The notes under the pieces are model-generated. The model saw only the letters and a list, made by a program, of their open reading frames with translations, was not told the origin of the DNA and made no database searches. From a virus, in IMG/VR virus record IMGVR_UViG_3300045988_093233, positions 1 to 39,186 of that record: DNA of 39,186 bases. One strand, written 5' to 3'. Below, in pieces: positions 7,335 to 35,552 of the stretch. A program made the translations under genes and the position numbers. Position 1 is the first letter of the stretch; every line of letters begins with the position of its first letter.

Positions 7335-7517
7335 TTATCGGTAGACTAATCGCAATAGTGCAACTATTCCTATGAAAATCCACATTGCCGCCGTTATCGG
7401 CTTCATGATCTGCAAGATTTTTTTCTGAATGGATTTCTTTTTAGCTTTCCGCTCTTTATATGAAAGCCATTCTTCTCTTGTCATTCCTAAAATTTTGAAA
7501 AACTCCGTTTCGTCCAT
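7335..7517 (-). CDS. First early ORF, small protein with C-terminal TM segment (60 aa)
   Basis: First ORF downstream of the leftward switch promoter. Contains the hydrophobic stretch ITAAMWIFIGIVALL. Confidence 0.5.
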   Translation of the reverse strand: MDETEFFKILGMTREEWLSYKERKAKKKSIQKKILQIMKPITAAMWIFIGIVALLRLVYR

Positions 7518-7539
7518 TTCTCACCTCTGCATTATTTTG

Positions 7540-7553
7540 CGTAAAACTTTACG
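7540..7553. promoter_or_regulatory. Operator-like palindrome CGTAAA-ac-TTTACG
   Basis: Perfect inverted repeat. The CGTAA/TTACG half-site recurs several times between 7540 and 7715. Confidence 0.5.
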
Positions 7554-7561
7554 AAAAGCCA

Positions 7562-7590
7562 TTGACAATTTTCGTAATTTATTCTATTAT
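7562..7590 (+). promoter_or_regulatory. Rightward promoter for the CI-like gene
   Basis: TTGACA (7562-7567), 17-nt spacer, TATTAT (7585-7590). Confidence 0.6.
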
Positions 7591-7660
7591 TCAAGTAACC
7601 ACACTAAATAATTTTTTACGAAGCATTTTTGTTTTCCGTATTTTTTTACGCTACGTCTTT

Positions 7661-7689
7661 ACTTTACCATAGAATTATACGGAAGTCAA
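7661..7689 (-). promoter_or_regulatory. Leftward early promoter
   Basis: On the minus strand: TTGACT (7689-7684), 17-nt spacer, TAAAGT (7666-7661). Confidence 0.45.
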
Positions 7690-7696
7690 TACTTTT

Positions 7697-7714
7697 TGCG
7701 TAAAAAAATACGCA
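7697..7714. promoter_or_regulatory. Operator-like palindrome TGCGTA-N6-TACGCA
   Basis: Perfect 6-bp arms just upstream of the CI RBS. Confidence 0.5.
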
Positions 7715-7730
7715 TTTTTTGGAGGAAGTA

Positions 7731-8081
7731 ATGGACACATATGAACGATTGAAAGATTTATGCAAACAAAAAGGGGTTACGGTTGGTCAAATGGAATCCG
7801 ATAACGAAATTACAAGAGGCAATGCGAACAAATGGCGGAACTCGATGCCAAATCCTAAAATGTTAATGAGATTATCAGAATACTTCGGTGTATCTACTGA
7901 TTATATTCTTACCGGTGTAGATAGCGGTGCATCTAAATATAGCTATTATGACGATGAGACGGAACAGATCGCAAGAGAACTTCAGAAGAACAAAGAACTA
8001 CGGGCAATCTTTGACGTGGCAAAGGGAATGTCTAAAGAGCGCTTGGACGCTTTTTATAACTTATTAAAAGACTTGAAATGA
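7731..8081 (+). CDS. CI-like XRE-family repressor
   Basis: GGAGG RBS 5 nt before ATG 7731. HTH region is LCKQKGVTVGQMESDNEITRGNANKWRNS...LSEYFGVSTDYILTG. Confidence 0.8.
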   Translation: MDTYERLKDLCKQKGVTVGQMESDNEITRGNANKWRNSMPNPKMLMRLSEYFGVSTDYILTGVDSGASKYSYYDDETEQIARELQKNKELRAIFDVAKGMSKERLDAFYNLLKDLK

Positions 8082-8102
8082 GGTGATGTATTGGAGGAAA
8101 AT

Positions 8103-8321
8103 GTGAAAATCGTATTTAGACCATTCGACTGCGATTTTCGCGGTGCCGTCCTTTGCAGGTATGAGGATGGCGAAAATTATTACACTATTGTAATAAACGA
8201 GAATCTATCGGAAGATGCTCAAATACGTACAATCAGACACGAGATCGCACACATTGCTCATAACGACTTCGACAGCGACATGCCAATCGGAGAGATTGAA
8301 GCTATTAGACATTTAATTTAG
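8103..8321 (+). CDS. Short ImmA/IrrE-like metallopeptidase-motif protein
   Basis: HEIAH (HExxH) motif in IRTIRHEIAHIAHNDF. The gene sits immediately after the repressor, as in ImmR/ImmA pairs. GTG 8103 follows GGAGG. It is much shorter than a full ImmA. Confidence 0.5.
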   Translation: MKIVFRPFDCDFRGAVLCRYEDGENYYTIVINENLSEDAQIRTIRHEIAHIAHNDFDSDMPIGEIEAIRHLI

Positions 8322-8337
8322 TATGGAGGTGTGAATA

Positions 8338-9174
8338 ATGAAAAAGGCTTTATCATTTATTTTATCTGTTTTCATAACGATATCAATGACAACTCCAGCT
8401 TATGGATATGGGCTGGAAAAACCAAACATAACATACATAGAATCGGACGGAAACTGCGTTTACATTGAATGGACTAATATTTATGGCGCCGAAATATACA
8501 ACGTATATCGTTCTGAAACTAACAAGTATGACTATGAATTTATAGACACAGCAACTAGCAATTCCTATTTTGATTCAAACGTAGAATATGGAAAAAGGTA
8601 TTATTACCAAGTCCAAGGGGTGAGCACCACAAGTTTTAGTGATCCAAGTGATTCTAAATCTGCAAAAATTGTATGGACTGATAAGCATTTCCCTGTTAAT
8701 GATTTGGGCAGACCGGAACTTACTACATTTACGGACGAAGATCAAGACTGTATATGGCTTCTTTGGGACGAGATCGAAGGAGCAAATGTATATTACATAT
8801 ATAGGTCAACCTCAAAAAACGGACCATACGAGTTAAAATATTTTGAAGATGAAAGCGTACTAACGTTTGATAAAAACATTAAAAAGAATAAACGATACTA
8901 TTACAAGGTTCAAGCCTTATATTTTGATGAAGAGAATGGGACTGTGCTAGGCGGAAAGCCTAGTTTGTGGAGATCTGATATAATCACAAGCAAAAGAATT
9001 GTAAAAAAATCAACCAAAACTGTATCAAAGCCCGTTAGTCAAACAGTGTACGTCACAAGAACAGGTTCAAAATATCACCGATATGGTTGCCAGTATTTAA
9101 GACAAAGCTGCTATTCTATGAGCAAATCTGATGCAAAAGCGCAAGGATATACAGCTTGTTCAAGGTGTTGGTGA
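8338..9174 (+). CDS. Secreted/lipoprotein-like protein with two FN3-like repeats and a C-terminal Cys-rich metal-binding tail
   Basis: Signal peptide MKKALSFILSVFITISMTTPAYG. Internal duplication (YNVYRSETNK...KRYYYQVQG and YYIYRSTSKN...KRYYYKVQA). C-terminus is GSKYHRYGCQYL...GYTACSRCW. Confidence 0.65.
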   Translation: MKKALSFILSVFITISMTTPAYGYGLEKPNITYIESDGNCVYIEWTNIYGAEIYNVYRSETNKYDYEFIDTATSNSYFDSNVEYGKRYYYQVQGVSTTSFSDPSDSKSAKIVWTDKHFPVNDLGRPELTTFTDEDQDCIWLLWDEIEGANVYYIYRSTSKNGPYELKYFEDESVLTFDKNIKKNKRYYYKVQALYFDEENGTVLGGKPSLWRSDIITSKRIVKKSTKTVSKPVSQTVYVTRTGSKYHRYGCQYLRQSCYSMSKSDAKAQGYTACSRCW

Positions 9175-9175
9175 T

Positions 9176-10213
9176 ATGGAATACATAAGAAAAACATTTA
9201 CCTTTGAGGGTAAACGGTACACTGTCAGAGGAAAAACTGAAAAAGAAGCCATTATGAAGATGGCGAATAAACTGCGGGATTTGGAGGAAGGCAGCGTTGT
9301 CATATCGGGGAATACTTCGGTAAAAGATTGGGCATTGAAGTGCGTGGAAACATACAAGACCAACCAAGCTGATGCTACAAGAAAAACCTATTTGGAAAAA
9401 ATGAATTCTGTCATTTTTACGAAAATTGGAAGCAGGACACTAAAATCAATAAAACCTTTTGACGTGCAAAATGTGATGAATTCTTTGCAAGGTTACTCGA
9501 AAGCCTACATATCCGATATTTATCAAATGCTTAGGTTTATTTTTTCAAAAGCAAAAACAAACAAACTGATTGCTGACGATCCAACGCTAGATTTACAGAA
9601 ACCAAAAGGAACAAAAAAGAACCGTCGTGCGCTCACAGAAAGTGAAGAATACCATTTTCTAAAAGTGTGTGAGGAAAGTGACAGGTTTTTGGTGTTCATG
9701 TTAATGTATTATTGCAGCTGTAGAACGTCAGAAGCAATCAACATTATGGGAAAAGATATTGTGGCAATTACAGAAAACGGAGAGAAGTACAACGTATTGC
9801 ATATAAGGGGAACAAAAAGCGGAAATGCTGACAGAAAGGTCCCTCTTCCGGATGTTTTATACAATCGAATAAAAAACACGCCTAAATTCAATTACGTTGC
9901 AACTGACACCAAAGGTAACAAGTATACAAAATCAAGCCTTAAATGTGCGCTAAATGCTCTACGCCGCGAAATGAACATCTCAATGGGGTGTAAGGTTTTT
10001 CGGAATGAACTTATTCAACCGCACCCTTTGGCGGATGATTTTGTTCCATACTGCTTGCGTCACACCTATTGTTCAAACCTATGCAAAAAAGGAGTGGATA
10101 TAAGAGTTGCGCAATACTTAATGGGACATTCGGACATTAGGCTGACAGCAAACATATATACACATACGGACAACTCTGCTATTGTGGATGCAGCAAAAAA
10201 AATGAGTGTGTGA
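9176..10213 (+). CDS. int: Tyrosine integrase
   Basis: N-terminal arm-binding-like FEGKRYTVRGKTEKEA. C-terminal catalytic pattern is ...CLRHTYCSNLCKKGVDIRVAQYLMGHSDIRLTANIYTH. ATG 9176 was chosen because the 9131 start overlaps the upstream gene. Confidence 0.9.
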   Translation: MEYIRKTFTFEGKRYTVRGKTEKEAIMKMANKLRDLEEGSVVISGNTSVKDWALKCVETYKTNQADATRKTYLEKMNSVIFTKIGSRTLKSIKPFDVQNVMNSLQGYSKAYISDIYQMLRFIFSKAKTNKLIADDPTLDLQKPKGTKKNRRALTESEEYHFLKVCEESDRFLVFMLMYYCSCRTSEAINIMGKDIVAITENGEKYNVLHIRGTKSGNADRKVPLPDVLYNRIKNTPKFNYVATDTKGNKYTKSSLKCALNALRREMNISMGCKVFRNELIQPHPLADDFVPYCLRHTYCSNLCKKGVDIRVAQYLMGHSDIRLTANIYTHTDNSAIVDAAKKMSV

Positions 10214-12081: not shown

Positions 12082-12309
12082 TTATCGAAGCATGCCAAGA
12101 ATCATATCGGGGTTTATGCCCATTTCGTTGCATTTCTGATAAAAAACCTCTTGTGGGTTTTTACCGTTTACCATATCCATAACATCTTTGATTCTTGGGT
12201 CGCTCATTTGACTCAGCGCAGACATCGGGTCTTTTGCAGTCTGCATGATTTGTTTTATTTGACCGATTGCCGGTGCGATTTGTGTCATTTGTAAAATAGG
12301 ATTCATCAC
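12082..12309 (-). CDS. Hypothetical protein (75 aa)
   Basis: ORF overlapping the upstream gene by 4 nt. Confidence 0.55.
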   Translation of the reverse strand: MMNPILQMTQIAPAIGQIKQIMQTAKDPMSALSQMSDPRIKDVMDMVNGKNPQEVFYQKCNEMGINPDMILGMLR

Positions 12310-27616: not shown

Positions 27617-29287
27617 TTAAAAAACAGCCTGTTGGGCTGCTTCTTGACTGAATAATTGTTGTTGTACGAGTGCGATCGCGTCCTCTTGCGGAATTCCTTG
27701 AGACATTAAGTCTAGCACTTGTCTTGCGAAGTTTTCTCCGCTTTGTGCTTGCTGTTTCTGCATCATCGCTTCGCGCTTTGCAAGCATTGACCTTAATTGC
27801 CCTTTAGGGACCGGGCCATTGTCCGGCGCGAGGTCTGCATATTCCTGCAAAGATAACTGCTGACGGTCAAACATGTTGTCAAGCCACTGCTGATTAGAAA
27901 GCTTCGTCCACTGGTTATCCTGTGAAACGTCAATCCTAACCGTAGGCTTCAGATCTTGCAACTGCTGTTGGTCGATTAAAGTCTGCACTTCTTCGCCCAT
28001 ATCGTTTGTAGAGGTCACTTCGATTCCCTCCGGATGGTAGGCAACCCACATATCAAACCATAAGAGCGCCACATCTTCAACAAACTGTTTATACCTAGCA
28101 ACATTTTCGTTTAATGTTACCTGTGCGCTGTCTCTGACTGCGATAATCGCTTGCCCTGATGCCTGTTCCGGATTGACATTACCCATAGCGTAATCACTGG
28201 CACCGGCAAGATCTTTTGTGATTTGCAATAAATCGTTTTGCAGACTATTCGCATCGCTTGATATGTTTGTTGCGTTGAGGTAGGAAACTTGTTGGGAAAC
28301 AGACTGTGCACCGCCGCCGCTGACCTCAATCGGCTTTCCAACTGTGTCTAAGTCCTCCGGATTCTGAACGGTCGAAGAATCATAGGCAATTCTAGGGAAC
28401 GCACAAAGCTTGACTGTGATTGCGCGTCTTGCAGCTGTTTTATTTAACTCCAGTTGGTTTGGAATCAGTTGAGCGACTTCCGAAACACCTCTAGCGTCAT
28501 AAGGAATCGGTCTCCAGATCATTGAACAAATCGGGTACGAATGCAGTCCGGTAACGTCTCCTTGGATTGCATGCATCGGTTCGTAAATGCACTGTGCAGT
28601 AGAACGTGCGACTTTTACAATCCCGTTCTCTTTTGTCATGTAAAGAAGCGATGTGACCTTATTGGAAACCTCATAGTTATTCAATATAACACCATCGTTT
28701 GCATTTGAATTGTCGTCTCCTACAATCAGTTCGATGTCTTTTTTCGGAATACCGTTATCCTTTGCAATTTTTCTGACAGCCTCAACCTCTAATCTCTCAC
28801 GAATGATGATAAACGGCTGCTCTTGAAGATCTGTTATATTCTCATCTCCAAGCAAGATCGACGTGTTCGGCAGAATCTTCGGCGGCATATCGGTTCTGTC
28901 ACTTCCCCAATACGCATATGCGTCTCCTTGAATTGCTGCTGCATTGATTAAATCCCACGTTTTGGAATCCATTTTGGACTTTTCCCAGTTCTTTGCGAAG
29001 TTTTGGTTCAGAAGTTCGTATATCGGCTGTAAATCGCCTCTGTTCTCAATATCAGAGTATTTAGCCGTCATGGAGTTCTGCGAAACGACAGCAACCTTGT
29101 ACTGAACAATCGGCAGGATAAAATTGAAAATCGGAAGCTCTTCACCTCCGGTATTACATCCGACCCACTGATTGCCAATATAGAAGTTCCAGTTTCGCTC
29201 TGTTTTCTTGACAAGACCTTTTTTATCAAGATAATCTTTGCATTTTTGGTACTTTTGCCATATTTTGGTGTAAACTTTATCTTGCAT
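27617..29287 (-). CDS. Portal protein
   Basis: 556 aa, lying between the terminase and the scaffold. Confidence 0.7.
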   Translation of the reverse strand: MQDKVYTKIWQKYQKCKDYLDKKGLVKKTERNWNFYIGNQWVGCNTGGEELPIFNFILPIVQYKVAVVSQNSMTAKYSDIENRGDLQPIYELLNQNFAKNWEKSKMDSKTWDLINAAAIQGDAYAYWGSDRTDMPPKILPNTSILLGDENITDLQEQPFIIIRERLEVEAVRKIAKDNGIPKKDIELIVGDDNSNANDGVILNNYEVSNKVTSLLYMTKENGIVKVARSTAQCIYEPMHAIQGDVTGLHSYPICSMIWRPIPYDARGVSEVAQLIPNQLELNKTAARRAITVKLCAFPRIAYDSSTVQNPEDLDTVGKPIEVSGGGAQSVSQQVSYLNATNISSDANSLQNDLLQITKDLAGASDYAMGNVNPEQASGQAIIAVRDSAQVTLNENVARYKQFVEDVALLWFDMWVAYHPEGIEVTSTNDMGEEVQTLIDQQQLQDLKPTVRIDVSQDNQWTKLSNQQWLDNMFDRQQLSLQEYADLAPDNGPVPKGQLRSMLAKREAMMQKQQAQSGENFARQVLDLMSQGIPQEDAIALVQQQLFSQEAAQQAVF

Positions 29288-29539
29288 TTATAACTCCTTT
29301 TGCCCTTTGGAAGAACCGTCGTAATTATTTACATTTTCATACAGTGTGCTGTAATATTTCCTCTTTTTTTCTGCTTCTTTGTTCTCTTTTGCCTTTTTAA
29401 TCTTCTGTTTTGGCGTTTCCAGCTTGATTTCCGGCTTGTTTGTCTCTCTTGCACCGATGTTATAGCCCTTTATAAAGCAAAAGACGCTCAAAATCGGCGT
29501 CAGTACGGCTAAAATTAGAATTGTAATGTCAGATAACAT
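29288..29539 (-). CDS. Small membrane protein between TerL and portal (83 aa)
   Basis: N-terminal TM (ITILILAVLTPILSVFCFI) and a Lys-rich tail. It abuts the portal start and overlaps the TerL end. Confidence 0.45.
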   Translation of the reverse strand: MLSDITILILAVLTPILSVFCFIKGYNIGARETNKPEIKLETPKQKIKKAKENKEAEKKRKYYSTLYENVNNYDGSSKGQKEL

Positions 29540-30986
29540 GAATTTTGTCTCCTTTGTCGAATCTTTTCCCTTTTTTACGCTTTAGTCCAGGGAAATTTCG
29601 CTCTAAAAACGATTCTTCTTTAATTTTTATCACTTTTGCGTCAGAGTAAATGAATTTATTTAGAATCTGCGACATGCAGTCTACTTGGTCGTCGTTCTTT
29701 CCGTTCGGAAACGCCGCGCATTCATCGACAAAGTCTCCGGTAAATGGTTTATTCTTCGGCAAAAAGCAGTTTCCGCTCTCAATCGTACCAATTACGGCAT
29801 TGACACGAGAAACTTTTCCGCCGTCCGGATTGACTGCGATTATCCCGCCCATATGCGTCCTCAAATGCTTCACAATCGCAGAACCATTTGCCTTGTCCTC
29901 GATGTAGGTTGTCTTGCACATAGGATACATGCCCCTCAACCTTGTAATCTCTCGTATCGTGGACGGCATATCAAGGTGTTTTTTCACTGCGTCAATCAAG
30001 TAAAGGTCAGCATTTGTCTTTCCCCACACTTGAATTGCCACAAAGTCGTTGTCGTCTCCGTCTTTGAACGCCGCATCAACGCTCATCGCCATTTTTTCAA
30101 TATGGGGTAAGGTCTCGTAATACTGCCACCACTCACGCTTGATTATGTTGCCCTCAAGCCCTGTTGGATGCCCTTGGAATAATGCGTTCCATGACCTTGA
30201 ACCACCTAAACTGGTATATGACTTCTTGAAGTCGGCAAGCCAAACATTGTCCTTTCCAATCTCCGGACACAAAGCATCTCCGACTTTTCTGCCTAAAATA
30301 TCATCCGGTTCTGCTTCTAAGGGGATATTGACTACTTTGACGTTTTTCTCTGTCTCAATCAGTCTTCCGGCAAGGTCATCCTCATGCCAGCGCGTCATAA
30401 TCAAAATGATTTTCGCACCGGCAGCTAGTCTTGTCTTATAGGATGAAAGCCATTCATCAAATACTCGATTACGATAACTTTCGGAATCCGCCTCTTGCTG
30501 TGTCTTTACTGGGTCATCGATAATCATGAGGTCGCATCGCCGACCAGTTACACCGGACAAAAGTCCTCTGCTTACCATGCCGCCTCTATGACCTTCAAGT
30601 TCAAACTCTGTCGCATTGGCAGGTGAACCGATTTTCACTCCGAAAACCTCACCGCCGAATTCTTTTATCTTCTGCAAATTGCGTCTGCCGAATTTCTGTG
30701 CAAAATCTTCAGAGTAGGAAATCTCAATCACCGACTTCTCGGGGTTTCTACCAAGATACCAGCTTGGCAGCGTCTCCGTCACTGTTACGGACTTCCCATG
30801 CTGCGGGGGTGTAGACAAAATTAAGATGTCATACGCATGCCCGGTGTCCTCTTCCAAAAAATCTTGCACCGTATCGCACAAAAAACGGTGGAATTTGCTC
30901 ACTTTATAGCCGTTATTGGTGTGTTTTACATACGCGCAGTAATCCGTCCTTAAAACGTCTCTATAGAGCCTTAAAACATCATTCAT
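29529..30986 (-). CDS. terL: Terminase large subunit
   Basis: Walker A-like LSTPPQHGKS, Walker B CDLMIIDDP, MTRWHEDDLAGRL, and a C-terminal nuclease-like ...NDDQVDC. Confidence 0.9.
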   Translation of the reverse strand: MNDVLRLYRDVLRTDYCAYVKHTNNGYKVSKFHRFLCDTVQDFLEEDTGHAYDILILSTPPQHGKSVTVTETLPSWYLGRNPEKSVIEISYSEDFAQKFGRRNLQKIKEFGGEVFGVKIGSPANATEFELEGHRGGMVSRGLLSGVTGRRCDLMIIDDPVKTQQEADSESYRNRVFDEWLSSYKTRLAAGAKIILIMTRWHEDDLAGRLIETEKNVKVVNIPLEAEPDDILGRKVGDALCPEIGKDNVWLADFKKSYTSLGGSRSWNALFQGHPTGLEGNIIKREWWQYYETLPHIEKMAMSVDAAFKDGDDNDFVAIQVWGKTNADLYLIDAVKKHLDMPSTIREITRLRGMYPMCKTTYIEDKANGSAIVKHLRTHMGGIIAVNPDGGKVSRVNAVIGTIESGNCFLPKNKPFTGDFVDECAAFPNGKNDDQVDCMSQILNKFIYSDAKVIKIKEESFLERNFPGLKRKKGKRFDKGDKIHVI

Positions 30987-31689
30987 TTTTCGCCTCTAAT
31001 AGTCTTGGTCTTGAATATCCGAGTTCCTCAAGGTTCTTCTTCGCCTCATCAACACTGGATGTGTCCTCAACCTTTACCACCCTGTCTTCTCGCTTATCCG
31101 CCCAATCGCATAAATTCTTTAAGGTGAATATCGCACTGGATGTGTTATAGGCGCCAACTAGAGCCCCGTCACTTAACAGATCTCCTAGCATAGATTTATA
31201 TTCGCTCTCCTGCGATGGGCTCATATTCGCTAGGTGGTCCCGCATGGACCTCCTAGAAATGCCCAGCCACATCGCTAGGTTTGTAACGTTCGGCACAATC
31301 GGCATTACGCCTGTTTCTCCGTCCGGTCTCTTAAACTCTTTCACGAAATTGTGCTTTCGGATATATGCACAAAATCCCTCGAACGCAGTCAATATCTCGT
31401 CGCAGCTTTCAAATATCTTTTTTTGAAGCGGTTCTAAATTATCCCTCATAGAGTAAATATAGCCCCACATCGCTTTCGCTTCTTTCGTGAGGTCTTTATC
31501 CTCTAGGTTTAATGGGTTCGGTCTAGCTTGATCATACTGCTTATAAAGCTGGTCTGCTCTACGAATCGCTTTCTTCGCATACGCTGCCTTGTTCTTCTCT
31601 TTGATCTGCGGTCTTACATGCGGAACAAACGGTTGAACAACCAGTTCATCGTTCCTTGGTCTGCCCCTCTTTCTCTTTTCATCAGCCAT
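30979..31689 (-). CDS. terS: Terminase small subunit
   Basis: Basic N-terminus KRKRGRPR. HTH-like NVTNLAMWLGISRRSMRDHL and C-terminal AIFTLKNLCDWADK pattern. Immediately upstream of TerL with an 8-nt overlap. ATG 31689 has a GAGGTG RBS. Confidence 0.75.
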   Translation of the reverse strand: MADEKRKRGRPRNDELVVQPFVPHVRPQIKEKNKAAYAKKAIRRADQLYKQYDQARPNPLNLEDKDLTKEAKAMWGYIYSMRDNLEPLQKKIFESCDEILTAFEGFCAYIRKHNFVKEFKRPDGETGVMPIVPNVTNLAMWLGISRRSMRDHLANMSPSQESEYKSMLGDLLSDGALVGAYNTSSAIFTLKNLCDWADKREDRVVKVEDTSSVDEAKKNLEELGYSRPRLLEAKNE

Positions 31690-32214
31690 TTTGCACCTCT
31701 TTTCAGTCATTTTGTATATTTATGCACAATTTTCGGATACTTGCCCGAGGAATCGTGATACTTTTATTCGTTTTCGTGTATAATTCTATTATTTTTTCGG
31801 TACTTACACTGCTTTTGACTAGTGGGGTCGCTACGATGTTGGTGTGAGGTGTAAGTACTCTGTATAGGGGACACGCTCGCGCGAGTGGGGTCATTTACGA
31901 TTCACCCCCATCGGGCACCCTGCCGCACCCCCTGCCCTACTATATGTAGTGGTCGAGGGGCAAAACAAGCGGCGGGAAAGAATAAGGGTATTTCTTCCAC
32001 CTCCTACGATTATTGAATTTTCAACGATTGCTGGCATAATGTAAAATGTTGTAACTATTCCGATAACTATGATTTAGGGAATAGTTGAGAAGAAATGAAG
32101 ATGTGCCAGTGATACATGGAAAGCGTGTGCCAGTCGGCTTTTTGGGCGGGAAGCATCTATACGAGCCCGGTCCATCCCCGTATTCAACCGAAATTGCGCT
32201 ACATTTATACGCAC

Positions 32215-32243
32215 GAAAAAAGACAGCCTGTATAGAGCTGTCT
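32215..32243 (-). terminator. Rho-independent terminator of the tRNA-containing transcript
   Basis: Minus strand reads AGACAGC-tctatacag-GCTGTCT followed by TTTTTT. There is no T-run on the plus strand. Confidence 0.75.
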
Positions 32244-32641
32244 GTGTAAATATAGTTTTGGTTTACTGTTTAGGGGTGTTCCTGTATAGTTTCCCCCGAT
32301 TCCGGCGCCGTCATATGCATCTGGCCGGCGTTCCTATATATGCCCTATGTCGCGTCTATATTGGTCGGGAATGCAGGATTCGAACCTGCTAAGCTATAAG
32401 CGTCAGATTTACAGTCTGATGTGCATCTCCCGCTGCACCGATTCCCGATATCTACGCGCGGCTGCGTGGATCCGGTAACGCGTCCTGCGCTCCGGGGTTG
32501 TTTGTTGCGGCCGTCATTCCCCCGATCGGTGACGCTGCGCTGTTCTATGTCATCCGCCCGCCTAGGGGGCGGCAATAACCGTTGCCCCCATTGCGGGGGC
32601 GTTGAAAGGAGGTCAAAAAACAATGAAAAACCTGTTTTCCC
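32244..32641 (-). ncRNA. GC-rich structured transcript (~190-nt leader, tRNA-Tyr, ~115-nt trailer)
   Basis: Bounded by an extended -10 promoter and a terminator. No credible ORF or RBS. Many G5/C5 runs form overlapping hairpins. Composition contrasts strongly with the rest of the genome. Confidence 0.45.
32362..32447 (-). tRNA. tRNA-Tyr: tRNA-Tyr (anticodon GTA), type II with long variable arm, encoded CCA
   Basis: Hand fold: acceptor CGGGAAT/ATTCCCG; D-stem GTGC/GCAC; anticodon arm TCAGA-CTGTAAA-TCTGA; 13-nt variable arm; T-arm GCAGG-TTCGAAT-CCTGC; A73; CCA. Total 86 nt. Confidence 0.85.
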
Positions 32642-32647
32642 ACTACT

Positions 32648-32656
32648 ATTGTACCA
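32648..32656 (-). promoter_or_regulatory. Extended -10 promoter (TGgTACAAT) for the tRNA transcript
   Basis: Minus strand reads ...aatgTGgTACAATagtagtg. The -35 is poor. Confidence 0.45.
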
Positions 32657-32750
32657 CATTTCCATAGATTTTTCGTCCGCGGAAAGTCCGCATTTTTCAA
32701 CGGTTTGCGGGTTTTGCCGAAAAAAGTTTGAAAAAAATTAAAAAAAGGTG

Positions 32751-32780
32751 TTGACATCATACCCGACGGTATGCTATGAT
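32751..32780 (+). promoter_or_regulatory. Near-consensus promoter of the plus-strand cassette
   Basis: TTGACA (32751-32756), 18-nt spacer, TATGAT (32775-32780). An A-rich UP-like tract lies upstream. Confidence 0.7.
32758..32774. promoter_or_regulatory. Operator-like inverted repeat CATACC-cgac-GGTATG(C) inside the promoter spacer
   Basis: Perfect 6-bp arms. The same 17-mer recurs at 33307-33323. Confidence 0.6.
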
Positions 32781-32833
32781 GTGGATACAACGAAAGAGCG
32801 GAACGGCAAAAGCCGATCGAAAGGAGAAAGAAA

Positions 32834-33103
32834 ATGAAGAAATACGTTTTTGAGGAGTACAGGGACAAAGCAGGTGTCGGAAGTGAAAAGATTTTCGACA
32901 CAAAAAAAGAAGCTGTTATGTTCGCAGAAAGCGAATGGAAATTCTTAACGGAAAATGACAAAGCGTCATACTTAAACGACGCAAACGGAACTTTTCGCGT
33001 CTACGAATTAGAATTCTCGCAGGAGCAGGCAGAGGATGAAGATTTGATGCTTAGCGAATTGTGGTATGCTGATGTGTGGGACGCATTGAGTGAGGGCAGA
33101 TAA
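32834..33103 (+). CDS. Small acidic protein (89 aa), first gene of the cassette
   Basis: AAGGAGA RBS. Rich in D/E (QEQAEDEDLMLSELWYADVWDALSE). Its stop overlaps the next start (TAATG). Confidence 0.65.
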   Translation: MKKYVFEEYRDKAGVGSEKIFDTKKEAVMFAESEWKFLTENDKASYLNDANGTFRVYELEFSQEQAEDEDLMLSELWYADVWDALSEGR

Positions 33104-33285
33104 TGGGAAAGACATCTAGTGAAGCCAAAGCCCGTTGGAAAAAAGCCAACTACGCAGAATACCATGTGAACTTGCGAAAAGATACCGACAGCGACCTAAT
33201 CGCGTTGGTGGAACGGCGAAAGCACAACGGCGAAAGCACAACGGAGGTTTTCCGGGACGCACTTAGAAAATTAAAAGAGGGTTGA
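33103..33285 (+). CDS. Ribbon-helix-helix (CopG/Arc-like) DNA-binding protein
   Basis: ANYAEYHVNLRKDTDSDLIALVERRKHNGESTTEVFRDALRKL fits a beta-strand / helix / helix RHH layout. Confidence 0.6.
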   Translation: MGKTSSEAKARWKKANYAEYHVNLRKDTDSDLIALVERRKHNGESTTEVFRDALRKLKEG

Positions 33286-33305
33286 CCAAAACCCTCAAAA
33301 ACATA

Positions 33306-33323
33306 GCATACCCGACGGTATGC
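33306..33323. promoter_or_regulatory. Second copy of the palindrome GCATACC-cgac-GGTATGC
   Basis: Identical core to the promoter operator. It follows a GAGGGTT/AACCCTC hairpin at the end of the RHH gene. Confidence 0.5.
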
Positions 33324-33423
33324 TGACCAAATTAAAAGCCCATGTAAAGAGAATTGGGTTAAGTTTTGTGAGGCAAAACGAACTTGTATGTTGTTAGGGG
33401 TTAGAATTTAGGAGGTTCAAAAC

Positions 33424-33441
33424 ATGAGAAGAATTAAATAA
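33424..33441 (+). CDS. Possible 5-codon leader ORF (MRRIK)
   Basis: AGGAGG lies 8 nt upstream of the ATG. Two GC-rich hairpins (33444-33459, 33466-33482) follow before the next gene. Confidence 0.3.
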   Translation: MRRIK

Positions 33442-33513
33442 ACGGCGGCACTAGCCGCCCCGTCTGCCGGTACAAGTCCGGCACTGATGAGCAAGAGCGA
33501 AACGGAGGGAAAA

Positions 33514-33717
33514 ATGAAAATTAGAAGTTTGTACATAACTGCTAGTAGAGCAGTTGCAGCACTTGCAAAAAAGTGGGAAGTGAATCCTGTATGGGTATGG
33601 GATTTGTTTGAATATGAATTCGGTGTTATAAAAGGCTTAGGCAATCTGGTTTCACAAGATGAGATCAACAGGGTTGAAAGCATCATTTGTGAAGAAATCA
33701 TTCATGACAGATCATGA
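33514..33717 (+). CDS. Hypothetical protein (67 aa)
   Basis: GGAGGG RBS before ATG 33514. The in-frame ATG 33487 has no RBS. Confidence 0.55.
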   Translation: MKIRSLYITASRAVAALAKKWEVNPVWVWDLFEYEFGVIKGLGNLVSQDEINRVESIICEEIIHDRS

Positions 33718-33732
33718 GAACGGAGGTACAAA

Positions 33733-33945
33733 ATGAGAAAGGTATTAAGCGCGATTACGGTAATTCTGATGGTTTTTACAATCGCATTAGCTAGCCATGT
33801 ATGGACGATGCACCATCTGAGCATCGAAACCGACGGCGACGGTGACAGCGCATTTATCACCTGTGCCGGTCTGACATGGTTCTATGGTATCAACGGCTAT
33901 GCCATAGATGCAGGCGGAAAAATGGTTGATTTTATCTGTGATTGA
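33733..33945 (+). CDS. Small membrane/secreted protein (70 aa)
   Basis: N-terminal hydrophobic segment VLSAITVILMVFTIALA. GGAGG RBS. Confidence 0.6.
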   Translation: MRKVLSAITVILMVFTIALASHVWTMHHLSIETDGDGDSAFITCAGLTWFYGINGYAIDAGGKMVDFICD

Positions 33946-33977
33946 TGATAGAATTACGAAAACAGGAGGACGAAAAG

Positions 33978-34397
33978 ATGAAAATTATGCAAGAAAACGG
34001 AAAGATCGTTATGGACATTACAATCTCGCAACCTCAGAAGAACGGTGATGTATACAAATACATCACAAAGAAACGTTTGGGTGGAAGTGTTACCGAGGAC
34101 GAATTTCTCGGTCTCAATGCCCCGGATATTCTGGTCGAAATATCCATGCCAGAGCTTCAAGGTTCCGAAAAACAAATTGCATGGGCCGAAGACATCAGGA
34201 TGAATATGATTTACAATTTTATGCACGAAAAAATTGAGATGAATGGTTGGGTATCCATGTTAGATCAAGGAAAAGCAATGGGAATCAATACGTATCAGGA
34301 GTTGTTCGAAGCACTGATGAAAGCGAATTTTCCGAAGTTGCTGCAAGAGACAAAAGCAAAAGAGATCATAGAGAATAGATACGCAATAAGGTTTTAG
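33978..34397 (+). CDS. Hypothetical protein (139 aa) with a GSEKQIAWAEDIR motif
   Basis: AGGAGG lies 8 nt before ATG 33978. I could not assign a family. Confidence 0.6.
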   Translation: MKIMQENGKIVMDITISQPQKNGDVYKYITKKRLGGSVTEDEFLGLNAPDILVEISMPELQGSEKQIAWAEDIRMNMIYNFMHEKIEMNGWVSMLDQGKAMGINTYQELFEALMKANFPKLLQETKAKEIIENRYAIRF

Positions 34398-34405
34398 GTG
34401 GGAAA

Positions 34406-34621
34406 ATGAAAAAATATCATGTTGAATACGCAACACCGGAAATGGTAAAAGATCACGGTGGATTACACGATTTGAGTTGGGGAGATATTAGTGATGCGAT
34501 CGACGCTGAAAGCGAAGATGAGGCTATTGAATTAGCGAAGCAGTCACTAATTGATGATGGATATGAAGAGAATATCGAAGATGTTTATTTTCGAGCAAAA
34601 ACTATTGACAAAATTTATTGA
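34406..34621 (+). CDS. Small acidic protein (71 aa)
   Basis: D/E-rich (DAIDAESEDEAIELAKQSLIDDGYEENIEDV). Last ORF of the cassette. Confidence 0.6.
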   Translation: MKKYHVEYATPEMVKDHGGLHDLSWGDISDAIDAESEDEAIELAKQSLIDDGYEENIEDVYFRAKTIDKIY

Positions 34622-34633
34622 AAATGATATTGT
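34605..34633 (+). promoter_or_regulatory. Promoter of the three-module RNA
   Basis: TTGACA (34605-34610), 17-nt spacer, TATTGT (34628-34633). The predicted start is about 34640, at the first module. Confidence 0.55.
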
Positions 34634-34638
34634 GATAG

Positions 34639-34669
34639 TGTCATACCATGCAGCGTTGTGAGTAGAAAC
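34639..34669 (+). repeat. Module 1 (N12 = TACCATGCAGCG)
   Basis: Exact TGTCA and TTGTGAGTAGAAAC flanks. Confidence 0.9.
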
Positions 34670-34696
34670 ATGTTCAATATTTTATGTATTGCAAGA

Positions 34697-34727
34697 TGTC
34701 ATGTCGAAAGGCATTGTGAGTAGAAAC
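34697..34727 (+). repeat. Module 2 (N12 = TGTCGAAAGGCA, self-complementary with GAAA loop)
   Basis: Exact TGTCA and TTGTGAGTAGAAAC flanks. Confidence 0.9.
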
Positions 34728-34758
34728 TTGTTATGATTTTATTGAAATCATAAATGAC

Positions 34759-34789
34759 TGTCACGCTGTATGGTATTGTGAGTAGAAAC
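34759..34789 (+). repeat. Module 3 (N12 = CGCTGTATGGTA, reverse complement of module 1's N12 with one G-U)
   Basis: Exact TGTCA and TTGTGAGTAGAAAC flanks. Confidence 0.9.
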
Positions 34790-34813
34790 ATTTCTTGATA
34801 AAGTATCTACAAA

Positions 34814-34846
34814 GAAAAAAGCAAGGCATAACACCTTGCTTTTTTC
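34814..34846. terminator. Bidirectional terminator shared by the ncRNA and the convergent early operon
   Basis: AAAAAA-GCAAGG-cataaca-CCTTGC-TTTTTT. Confidence 0.8.
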
Positions 34847-35272
34847 TTATAGATTATTTACCTTGTAATCGGCGATTTTACGGAGTTTTTTTCTCAACTT
34901 GCTCAATCTGTCATAGGTTGCAGTTCTGTCGTATCCTAGGGCGCTTTTGAGGTATTCGAAGTTCTTCGTTCCCTTCTGCTGCGCGATGTACTGGATCATC
35001 AGCAGTTCGTCTGCATCTAAGGCAGCTGTCAGATTTTTATAGGCGTTCAGATATTCTTGGTATTCTCTGATCTCCCAGTCGATTTTTTCCCTTCGCTGCG
35101 CTTTTTGCACTGTCGGGTCCGATATTCCGCTGCCGCGAACATGGGAATAGTCCATGCCGCCGGAATCGGCTGCAGCTTCTTTTTCGGCGATCAGTTCCGC
35201 CAGTATTCTGACGTTTTTGTCATAGTCTGATAGGAACCGGTCAACGTCGAAGTTATAGTATTTTTCTACCAT
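34847..35272 (-). CDS. ArpU/RinA-type late transcription activator (sigma region-4-like)
   Basis: Last gene of the early operon. C-terminal ELLMIQYIAQQKG...LGYDRTATYDRLSKLRKKL is an HTH-like pattern. GAGGAG RBS before ATG 35272. Confidence 0.5.
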   Translation of the reverse strand: MVEKYYNFDVDRFLSDYDKNVRILAELIAEKEAAADSGGMDYSHVRGSGISDPTVQKAQRREKIDWEIREYQEYLNAYKNLTAALDADELLMIQYIAQQKGTKNFEYLKSALGYDRTATYDRLSKLRKKLRKIADYKVNNL

Positions 35273-35552
35273 GATTTTTCTCCTCATATTGCGCTTCGAA
35301 TATATGCATCATATCACAAAATCCTTGTGTGATGTCTTCTATGTCGTATTCGTAATATACGAGTTTTTTCGGATATGAAAGCGTAACAGCAGCGCCATCT
35401 TTTTCGATTACTAAAAATATTAAATGTTCGTGTTCATCATCGACAAAACGTGTTTCTATTTCCTTTTTTTTGCAATCTGATATAAAGTCATTTATCGCAT
35501 TGTAGAACCGTTTTTCCGTTTTGTCACATTTTTTGCGATATTTTCTACCCAT
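35253..35552 (-). CDS. Hypothetical protein (99 aa)
   Basis: ATG 35552 immediately follows the upstream stop. Confidence 0.5.
   Translation of the reverse strand: MGRKYRKKCDKTEKRFYNAINDFISDCKKKEIETRFVDDEHEHLIFLVIEKDGAAVTLSYPKKLVYYEYDIEDITQGFCDMMHIFEAQYEEKNHGRKIL

Follow-up and report, generated by a model that had tools for sequence, protein, structure and literature searches.

Layout of the segment between terS and the regulator gene

The segment between terS and a 146-aa regulator gene was analyzed in the IMG/VR virus record IMGVR_UViG_3300045988_093233. It carries a tRNA gene, a cassette of small genes on the opposite strand, a hammerhead ribozyme motif and a short RNA unit with three modules resembling a CRISPR repeat. 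The window, i.e., the whole stretch of DNA that was analyzed, is the complete record of 39,186 bp with a 41-bp terminal repeat. Nearly all of its genes lie on the minus strand, and the two plus-strand blocks are at 7429-10213 and 32834-34621, the latter within the segment. An earlier note had described four elements here, namely about 500 bp of non-coding DNA, a GC-rich tRNA transcript, six small plus-strand open reading frames (ORFs) and a three-module RNA, and had read them as a 3.1-kb anti-defence or host-takeover island. All four were found close to the positions it gave, which confirms the observation. The anti-defence interpretation is supported by the swapped cargo, the CRISPR repeat mimic and the ArdC gene in the equivalent cassette of a relative, L019. 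The hammerhead ribozyme at 33457-33508 was absent from that note.

We consider it probable that the segment has two parts, a conserved terS leader with a tRNA slot (31711-32750) and a counter-defence operon (32751-34848). The flanking genes and the elements on which this reading is built are as follows.

30979-31710, minus strand: terS, with a weak GP3_package match
32751-32780, plus strand: cassette promoter TTGACA-18-TATGAT, 11/12 consensus match with a TG extension
32758-32775, plus strand: palindromic operator CATACCCGACGGTATGCT in the spacer of the cassette promoter, between -35 and -10
33282-33324, plus strand: second promoter-like site TTGACC-16-TAGCAT, just past g2, overlapping the second exact operator copy (33307-33324)
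33457-33508, plus strand: type III hammerhead ribozyme (RF00008, 29.6 bits), with complete core and family covariation
34605-34848, plus strand: repeat-mimic RNA unit (promoter-like site, three modules, terminator hairpin)
34847-35287, minus strand: 146-aa regulator gene

Relatives, given as L-numbers, are IMG/VR sequences collected by TerL similarity, and further L-loci were collected by motif or array scans. No close DNA relative of the window phage was found among the INPHARED phages by blastn.

A unit that mimics type I-C CRISPR repeats

The unit opens with a promoter-like site, TTGACA-17-TATTGT (34605-34633, a consensus match only), which ends 6 nt before module 1. The 30-nt repeat-like modules lie at 34640-34669, 34698-34727 and 34760-34789, with spacer-like segments between and after them (28 nt at 34670-34697, 32 nt at 34728-34759, and from 34790 onward), and a perfect 15-bp terminator hairpin (34812-34848) closes the unit. 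As direct repeats, the three copies extend over 41 nt each (34639-34799), with spacings of 58 and 62 nt and 66-76% likeness over the 41 nt. The 15-mer repeat core has no other copy anywhere in the genome.

All modules begin with the 5′ GTCAY of a 33-nt CRISPR repeat and preserve its 12-nt 3′ end GTGAGTAGAAAC exactly. When 185,579 species genomes were scanned for two copies of GTGAGTAGAAAC 42-72 nt apart, 32 stretches were obtained. Most were large arrays, with up to 92 repeats and a period of 66-67 nt, from Lachnospiraceae, Ruminococcus, Clostridium, Oscillospiraceae and other Clostridia; one example of the 33-nt host repeat is GTCACACCTCGCAAGAGGTGTGTGAGTAGAAAC. Two of the arrays (L320 and L340) adjoin genes for Cas5c, Cas8c, Cas7/Csd2, Cas4, Cas1c and Cas2, all above curated cut-offs. 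In the host repeat, a 2-nt overhang precedes an 8-bp stem closed by a GCAA loop, and the 11-nt tail UGAGUAGAAAC follows. A type I-C repeat is built of a 2-nt overhang, stem, loop and 11-nt tail, and Cas5c is reported to read its cut site and handle but not its loop and 5′ overhang (PMC8524198). The phage modules conserve the features that are read, i.e., the stem base, the cut site and the 11-nt handle UGAGUAGAAAC, and vary the stem and loop sequence that is tolerated. Because they keep what Cas5c reads and change what it tolerates, the host's Cas5c should bind and cut the RNA, and Cascade subunits should be loaded onto it. The wording of the earlier note, a decoy-like RNA, proved apt in that the unit copies the conserved ends of a Clostridia type I-C repeat.

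Beyond these ends, the modules are fitted to each other. The variable 12-mers of modules 1 (UACCAUGCAGCG) and 3 (CGCUGUAUGGUA) are reverse complements of each other with one G·U pair, and the variable part of module 2 is a GAAA-capped hairpin with a U·G pair, followed by the 11-nt tail. The fold energy of the complete unit is -67.3 kcal/mol (z -6.3) for the plus strand, where modules 1 and 3 form a helix, and -53.6 for the minus strand. A C-to-U change in module 1 of L004 leaves the pairing in place as G·U only in the plus-strand RNA. The plus-strand-only G·U pairs and this compensated change point to RNA. Single modules folded alone gave no consistent structure, which had suggested that the repeats are DNA sites; the full-length fold and the CRISPR match overturned that suggestion.

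Further copies of the unit were found in L004/L212 (99.6%) and in L279 (92%, with module 2 destroyed). The same mimic lies behind a TGTATAAT promoter in L248, L251 and L242, as solitary or paired units in L248 and L251, and as two 32-nt units of the form GTCAC-[hairpin]-GTTGTGAGTAGAAAC in L242.

Two of these copies showed side features. In L279 (reverse complement ~680-960; window 34690-34730), the hairpin and handle of module 2 are lost through at least 11 G-to-A changes; every G over ~35 nt is changed, and modules 1 and 3 are intact. This run looks like local hypermutation or an assembly artefact. In L242 (reverse complement ~12110-12180), the stem of one of the two modules carries the insert TTTTCCCCGCGTTAGCGGGGGTGATTC, which may resemble a type I-E CRISPR repeat; the insert-bearing module would then be a possible two-system mimic.

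No match to a cas5c or Cas7/Csd2 gene was found in the phage. RNA anti-CRISPRs (Racrs), each a solitary repeat unit, act by sequestering Cas proteins, and one of them, RacrIC1, is located 11 nt past an acrIC5 homolog (Camara-Wilpert et al. 2023, PMC10651486). Similarly, the present unit is a phage RNA that copies a host CRISPR repeat in a phage without cas genes, it has a predicted promoter directly upstream, its aim would be type I-C, and a candidate anti-CRISPR (acr) gene is its neighbour, 18 nt away (g6) as against 11 nt for RacrIC1. It is unlike a Racr in being no solitary repeat without spacers: three units are present, with spacer-like segments of 28 and 32 nt between them, the hairpins are replaced rather than copied, and modules 1 and 3 pair over 12 bp around module 2. 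The supplementary tables of the Racr paper (PMC10651486) list neither this sample nor the motif. Together, these features make the unit most likely an RNA anti-CRISPR that works as a decoy (Racr) or as a guide (Cracr), and a type I-C repeat mimic of this kind is likely to interfere with CRISPR.

Decoy or guide

Cracrs carry a spacer-like segment matching a cas or creT promoter, and they often form arrays; nine type I-C examples with two spacers are listed (Liu et al., bioRxiv 10.1101/2024.10.29.618823). At 34640-34848 the window has the same layout, that is, degenerate repeat-like units around short spacer-like segments in one unit ending in a terminator. After processing by Cas5c, RNAs made up of the handle and a spacer-like segment could guide host Cascade to the cas3/cas operon promoter or to a CreT-type toxin promoter and silence it. 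A guide array of this kind is possible, though we hold it for the less likely role, and it is a refinement of the best explanation and not its opposite. The degenerate repeats, the segments of 28 and 32 nt (33-35 in host arrays) and the final repeat-spacer-terminator match Cracr arrays and CracrVA1. Moreover, two host type I-C loci of this repeat family (L360 and L362) have, just upstream of cas3, a degenerate repeat that stands alone and is CreR-like, and the segment past the solitary unit of L248 matches the CreR-like spacer of L362 at 13 of the first 17 positions.

The targets expected of a guide did not appear. In the 32 array loci, the three segments of the window matched nothing above shuffled sequences (best 22/32; shuffles 17-22), and in five complete cas3-upstream regions no match exceeded the shuffled controls; a match to a host cas or creT promoter or to a CreR/CreA spacer was thus not found in these loci. 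A handle-plus-seed search of 301 Lachnospiraceae genomes remained at background, although with 3 mismatches allowed this is uninformative noise. The module 1-module 3 helix would also bury the first spacer-like segment in a folded domain. If the mimic does interfere with CRISPR, a decoy is roughly a little better than an even prospect and a guide a distinctly weaker one, with the remainder going to a relic or something else.

Several array-like loci met in these scans are recorded here for themselves. The solitary degenerate repeats with a spacer-like segment (L360 3020-3090 and L362 3520-3590) resemble the CreR autoregulatory RNAs of other subtypes. In the cultured Clostridia isolate Yeguia hominis NSJ-40 (L331 7017-7160), three degenerate type I-C-like repeats with a period of 55 nt enclose two near-identical short spacers, AATGAAAGTATGATTCTTTG..., and this mini-array is CreR/CreA- or Cracr-like. 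Two viral contigs that were collected solely for their one TTGTGAGTAGAAAC copy each (L270 and L262) are hit by three spacers (33/34 to 34/34) from the type I-C arrays L312/L335 of one Clostridia genome, indicating that this system targets phages with TTGTGAGTAGAAAC.

The cassette occupies a variable slot

In the closest relatives, L003 (TerL 98%) and L004 (94%), the window range 29000-32810 and the regulator side are ~90% identical, and the cassette between them is mosaic. Mosaic cargo between kept flanks was also seen in L120, L137 and L279. The g1 gene is absent from both L003 and L004 as a precise indel; L004 also lacks g3 and has largely deleted g5, and from L003 the repeat unit is missing together with g5 and g6. 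In the interval from g2 to the hammerhead, L003 and L004 carry 770-1000 bp of other genes, coding for J-domain-like and for 70-aa or 145-aa proteins. More distant lineages keep the order of a regulator, an opposite-strand cassette with a ribbon-helix-helix (RHH)-like gene, and then terS/terL. The cargo there includes ArdC in L019 (ArdcN 2e-15, zincin peptidase 2e-28), DUF3560 in L008 (2.5e-34), which in L008/L047 is accompanied by a J-domain protein, and in L061 small ORFs for acidic products. The segment between the regulator and the terminase genes is a variable hotspot. The earlier note had proposed a synteny comparison, and had named as the contrary outcome an invariant block essential for packaging or late transcription, with genes that prove to be structural or assembly factors. 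The flanks are kept and the cargo is exchanged among phages with 94-98% TerL identity, so the block is neither invariant nor essential, and the cassette proteins gave no match to structural or assembly families.

An extra 95-aa gene is present right after the regulator gene in L003 (2085-2372) and L004 (3530-3817) and absent from the window, so that the regulator side of the slot is variable too.

A variable slot may also hold ordinary morons, and the segment could be an accessory region with no defence role, whose genes serve lysogeny, host physiology or phage regulation and whose repeats are the decaying relic of a captured CRISPR fragment. None of the proteins has a recognisable anti-defence domain, module 2 of L279 is wrecked by the G-to-A run, and the entire g5-g6-repeat block is missing from L003, all of which favours this reading. 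We nevertheless regard it as improbable. An exact 12-nt handle in three modules, with variation only in the parts that Cas5c tolerates, is unexpected of a relic; the complementarity of modules 1 and 3 was kept through a compensated change; the same mimic stands behind its own promoter in unrelated phages; and the equivalent cassette of L019 carries ArdC.

It is very doubtful that the repeats act as DNA, i.e., as tandem minus-strand promoters, binding sites of a sigma-like regulator or a cosB-like packaging site. Minus-strand hexamers can be read in module 3 (GTGACA-17-TAAAAT) and module 2 (TCGACA-17-TAAAAT), and the unit is directly downstream of the regulator gene. However, the repeats are missing from L003, although its regulator is 99% identical and its terS region is the same, by which late promoters and a cos site were rejected; moreover, the conserved core is the same as the end of a CRISPR repeat, and the G·U pairs and the compensated change work only as plus-strand RNA. 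Equally doubtful is a working mini-CRISPR array that uses host Cas against rival phages or plasmids: three repeat-like units with two segments of near-spacer length would suit it and virus-borne mini-arrays are known (cited in PMC10651486), but the repeats differ from each other and from every host repeat instead of being identical, the segments are AT-rich and partly palindromic, and both intervening ones were found in IMG/VR only in L004's own copy, with no protospacer and no matching mobile element.

Promoter, operator and the g1-g2 pair

The cassette promoter (32751-32780) is the best sigma-70 match of the region. The 18-nt palindrome in its spacer occurs exactly twice in the genome (32758-32775 and 33307-33324) against 0.12 copies expected. 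The first two genes downstream are the following.

32834-33103, plus strand: g1, 89 aa, acidic (isoelectric point (pI) 4.3), stop codon overlapping the g2 start (TAATG)
33103-33285, plus strand: g2, 60 aa, basic (pI 9.6), RHH_1 match of E 0.04, below the Pfam cut-off

Homologs of g1 lie next to an RHH-like gene in L019 and next to an XRE-type helix-turn-helix (HTH) gene in L248, and L248 carries a type I-C repeat unit as well. The AlphaFold2 (AF2) model of g1 (pLDDT 83) had no significant neighbour and no anti-CRISPR (Acr) fold, the best structure-search E in the PDB being 0.12. From its context, g1 is a candidate anti-defence protein. The g2 gene is kept in L003, L004, L120 and L137 at 94-98%, and its distant relatives share 32-49%. 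The g2 product is probably an RHH autorepressor resembling anti-CRISPR-associated (Aca) proteins, and its pairing with the operator would follow from the arrangement. The earlier note had proposed an RHH autoregulator. An operator-like palindrome is indeed present, and the RHH part of the proposal stays below threshold.

The arrangement recalls acr-aca operons. As in these, a strong promoter holds an inverted-repeat operator in its spacer, a small acidic first gene is translationally coupled to a small protein of DNA-binding type, and the g1 family occurs with varying regulators, RHH-like here and in L019 and HTH in L248. Unlike these, the pair has no homology to a known Acr or Aca, the RHH call is sub-threshold, and the closest relatives lack g1, so that the regulator is the first gene there.

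A hammerhead ribozyme in front of g3

In a permissive Rfam scan of 3.5 kb with all families, Hammerhead_3 scored E 0.0017, and the 29.6 bits lie below the cut-off of 48.5. The copies in L003 and L004 scored 29.3 and 26.4 bits. The core is complete (CUGAUGA, GAAA and GUC within 33462-33503), stem I spans 33465-33483, stem II has 2 bp, and cleavage is predicted between C33464 and U33465. The 3′ strand of stem III, GGAGG (33504-33508), is also the Shine-Dalgarno sequence of g3, 5 nt before its start codon. Except for the stem II loop, the hammerhead block is the same in L003 and L004, and in L004 the flanks are unrelated on both sides, with the hammerhead fused directly to g4 and not g3.

Scanning IMG/VR with CTGATGAGCNNNNGCGAAAC yielded 114 stretches, and 118 pattern matches were present in the loci examined. 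Full type III geometry, with GUC, a 6-bp stem I, a 7-nt UAAAAGU-type loop and a stem III of at least 4 bp, was found in 76 of the 118. Among 49 distinct 62-nt sequences, 94% of the cells were paired and the covariation was 0.505, compared with 0.10 in shuffles and at most 0.127 for slid partners. Cells changed on both sides numbered 126, compared with 30.5 +/- 4.3 in shuffles, and pair 10-53 was CG in 28, GC in 10, UA in 9 and AU in 2 sequences, with none unpaired. Stem I was pre-selected by the filter and stem II was fixed by the search pattern, but stem III was free, and its inner pairs covary cleanly without selection. A Shine-Dalgarno-like motif was present in the 3′ flank of 20/49 sequences (9.0 +/- 2.3 in shuffles). 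In ~20 loci the ribozyme lies between the J-domain and 145-aa gene families of L004. L061 has a hammerhead of 36.3 bits, and L019 has a type II hammerhead above threshold (53 bits) beside ArdC.

Hammerheads with a 2-bp stem II, hammerheads around single prophage genes and a triple one around ardA have been described (Perreault et al. 2011, PMC3088659). The present one shares with them (RF00008, RF02276) the canonical core, the 2-bp stem II, an intergenic place in an accessory operon and anti-restriction cargo nearby, ardA there and ArdC beside the type II hammerhead of L019 here. Unlike those, this subfamily is below the Rfam gathering score and has a 6-bp stem I with a conserved 7-nt UAAAAGU-type loop I, a GC/GC stem II with an ARGA-type loop, and a stem III that often holds the Shine-Dalgarno of the downstream gene; each operon has one copy, not a flanking pair or triple. 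The prophage arrangement is thus of a known kind, and the subfamily and the overlap with a ribosome-binding site are new. The motif at 33457-33508 is a type III hammerhead and belongs to a covarying family; its self-cleavage and what may follow from it are predicted.

Just upstream (33411-33460), a strong AGGAGG is followed by a 5-codon mini-ORF, ATG AGA AGA ATT AAA TAA (33425-33442), and then by a perfect 6-bp GC hairpin (33445-33460), some bases of which also belong to the 5′ strand of stem III of the hammerhead. These could be a leader peptide or an alternative structure.

Cargo genes g3 to g6

Past the ribozyme, four further small genes were identified.

33514-33717, plus strand: g3, 67 aa, first gene past the ribozyme; 97% in L003, absent from L004
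33733-33945, plus strand: g4, 70 aa, with a hydrophobic N-terminal segment; 88-92% in L003, L004 and L120
33978-34397, plus strand: g5, 139 aa (151 aa from the TTG at 33942), orphan with weak matches to PHROGs of unknown function
34406-34621, plus strand: g6, 71 aa, acidic (pI 4.3), ending 18 nt before the repeat-mimic unit

In a search of 5.8 billion proteins, g5 had near-identical homologs only, and g6 had only close, unnamed relatives. The g6 gene is co-inherited with the repeat unit in L004, and three of its homologs bear an N-terminal RHH-like extension (NikA-like, 1e-4). Its AF2 model (pLDDT 80) had no significant neighbour and no Acr fold (best PDB structure-search E 0.64), and context makes g6 a candidate Acr. 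The earlier note had counted two acidic proteins among the small genes, and these are g1 and g6, both of pI 4.3. They are not paralogs, as no alignment was obtained between them.

No plus-strand terminator was found inside the cassette, indicating that g1-g6 probably form a single operon. The earlier claim that each unit has its own promoter and terminator therefore stands in part: the promoters and terminators are consensus matches only, and the cassette has no internal terminator.

The terS leader and the tRNA-Tyr unit

The terS-proximal part, read on the minus strand, has two features.

31711-32220, minus strand: conserved non-coding leader upstream of terS, without a convincing ORF
32221-32656, minus strand: tRNA-Tyr transcription unit (extended -10, leader, tRNA, trailer, terminator-like hairpin)

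The leader corresponds to the roughly 500 bp of non-coding DNA in the earlier note and is 89-91% identical in L003/L004, excepting the last ~150 nt before terS. Within it, a palindromic ~50-nt element (32048-32102) with a 9-bp inverted repeat, AACTATTCC...GGAATAGTT, recurs at 80-88% identity beside the terminase genes of L008, L013, L015, L018, L040 and L047. It is a candidate late promoter or late-promoter operator, or a packaging signal.

The GC-rich transcript proved to contain a tRNA-Tyr. Rfam RF00005 matched at 32365-32447 on the minus strand with 48.4 bits (cut-off 29), and the minimum-energy fold is the cloverleaf (z -2.4). The tRNA-Tyr(GUA) spans 32362-32447 including the encoded CCA and has the long variable arm and discriminator A73 of a bacterial tRNA-Tyr. 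The extended -10, TGgTACAAT at ~32648-32656, was read from the sequence; it is followed by a ~190-nt GC-rich leader and, past the tRNA, by a ~120-nt trailer and a terminator-like hairpin (32243-32221). As noted earlier, this promoter and that of the cassette are divergent, with an A-tract in between. ARAGORN called no tRNA in the window, but it called the 97.7%-identical L003 copy a tRNA-Tyr; that copy differs at three positions including G9 to A9. Candidate-host tRNA genes matched at ~81% identity over 43 nt only. A search of the GC-rich leader for CRISPR-like or host-like sequence gave only low-complexity and ~81% tRNA matches. The window tRNA also has C1-G72 and C8, where bacteria usually have G1-C72 and U8.

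L003, L120 and L137 carry the tRNA at 96-99% identity, and in L004 it is swapped for unrelated sequence with leader and trailer kept. Two more distant relatives carry a tRNA-Leu or tRNA-Gln immediately upstream of terL. The earlier picture of a 3.1-kb insertion holds for the cargo part, which is swappable. It was rejected for the entire segment, because the ~1.1 kb next to terS is conserved in the lineage; this stretch is better described as the terS leader of the lineage with a tRNA slot, rather than inserted cargo.

The tRNA-Tyr of T5 counters the retron Eco7 effector PtuAB, a degrader of tRNA-Tyr (Azam et al. 2024, PMC11555353). Both are independent phage tRNA-Tyr units in an accessory region with counter-defence candidates adjacent. 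A difference is that no tRNA-targeting defence is known for the present host, and codon supply is equally possible; Tyr makes up 4.4% of codons (TAT 207, TAC 161). The tRNA-Tyr may supplement translation, or it may stand in for host tRNA-Tyr destroyed by a tRNA-cleaving defence.

On the regulator side, the 146-aa protein itself matches phrog_1058 alone, the function of which is unknown. A homolog in L191 (33% identity) matches phrog_36 (4e-15) and phrog_248 (1.4e-8), which carry the annotations transcriptional regulator and activator, and the positional counterpart in L061 matches Pfam Sigma70_r4 (1e-7) and also DUF1492. The label of a late activator gene given by the earlier note is plausible through these homologs, and its own match goes no further than phrog_1058; a late activator or sigma-like regulator is thus plausible by transitive homology, not directly.

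Proposed mechanism

The following model would join these elements. In the first part (31711-32750), a lineage-conserved non-coding front of terS would offer a swappable tRNA slot, here holding a tRNA-Tyr with its own promoter and terminator. The second part (32751-34848) would be an opposite-strand accessory operon with exchangeable cargo for counter-defence. A near-consensus promoter with the palindromic operator would drive g1 and then g2. In an acr-aca-like manner, g2 would bind the operator, of which a second copy lies just downstream of g2, and shut the promoter. The transcript would then enter the hammerhead, and self-cleavage after C33464 would part the regulator half from the cargo half and remove the short 5′ strand of stem III, freeing the GGAGG ribosome-binding site of g3. 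The cargo g3-g6 consists of small proteins of unknown function. At the operon end, and perhaps also from its own promoter, a ~200-nt RNA with three type I-C repeat look-alikes would be made. Host Cas5c would bind and cut it and Cascade subunits would be loaded, and Cascade would be diverted from real CRISPR RNAs (crRNAs) as by a Racr-type decoy or redirected to a host promoter as by a Cracr-type guide. Most likely, this is a counter-defence island built of parts of known kinds: an RNA of the Racr/Cracr type and a phage tRNA, together with a prophage hammerhead and a switch resembling that of acr-aca operons.

Several results weigh against this counter-defence model. The promoters and terminators are predictions from sequence, as are cleavage by the ribozyme and the RNA itself. 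A local hairpin is lacking in modules 1 and 3, and hence Cas5c may not process them as ordinary repeats. The RHH assignment of g2 is below threshold, and stem II of the L004 hammerhead has a C-U mismatch. None of g5, g6 and the repeat unit is essential, since L003 is without them. No match was found for g1-g6 in Pfam, known-function PHROGs, NCBIfam or PDB sequences, Foldseek with the g1 and g6 models returned no known anti-defence structure, and these general searches gave no homology to a validated Acr or Aca. The host link is indirect as well. None of 513 host spacers from the captured arrays targets the phage, and in 19 host genomes no spacer-length match to the phage was found, the hits being a ThyX-like gene at 67-84% identity. 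Hence only the mimicry points to a host with this type I-C system.

A more elaborate form of the counter-defence model, which seems to us rather unlikely, is that the ~200-nt RNA is one folded nested device and not a string of decoys. The 12-bp helix of modules 1 and 3 would then be a composite type I-C hairpin with a handle, enclosing the mini-repeat of module 2. Several Cas5c/Cascade assemblies might be loaded or trapped per molecule, or processing might depend on folding. Together with a ribozyme that unmasks a ribosome-binding site, this would be an anti-CRISPR operon run largely by RNA and exceeding in complexity the Racrs and Cracrs described so far.

Implications

If the RNA disables type I-C CRISPR-Cas, a temperate phage from the gut, with Lachnospiraceae or related Clostridia as hosts, would stack RNA and protein counter-measures in one exchangeable slot, and RNA anti-CRISPRs would be extended to a common, little-studied host group. 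The orphan families g1 and g6, which adjoin regulators and repeat mimics in independent phages, are candidate type I-C inhibitors. The hammerhead subfamily adds at least 49 distinct phage sequences missed by the Rfam threshold, and its frequent overlap with ribosome-binding sites offers a concrete, testable idea for the purpose of prophage hammerheads, a question since 2011.

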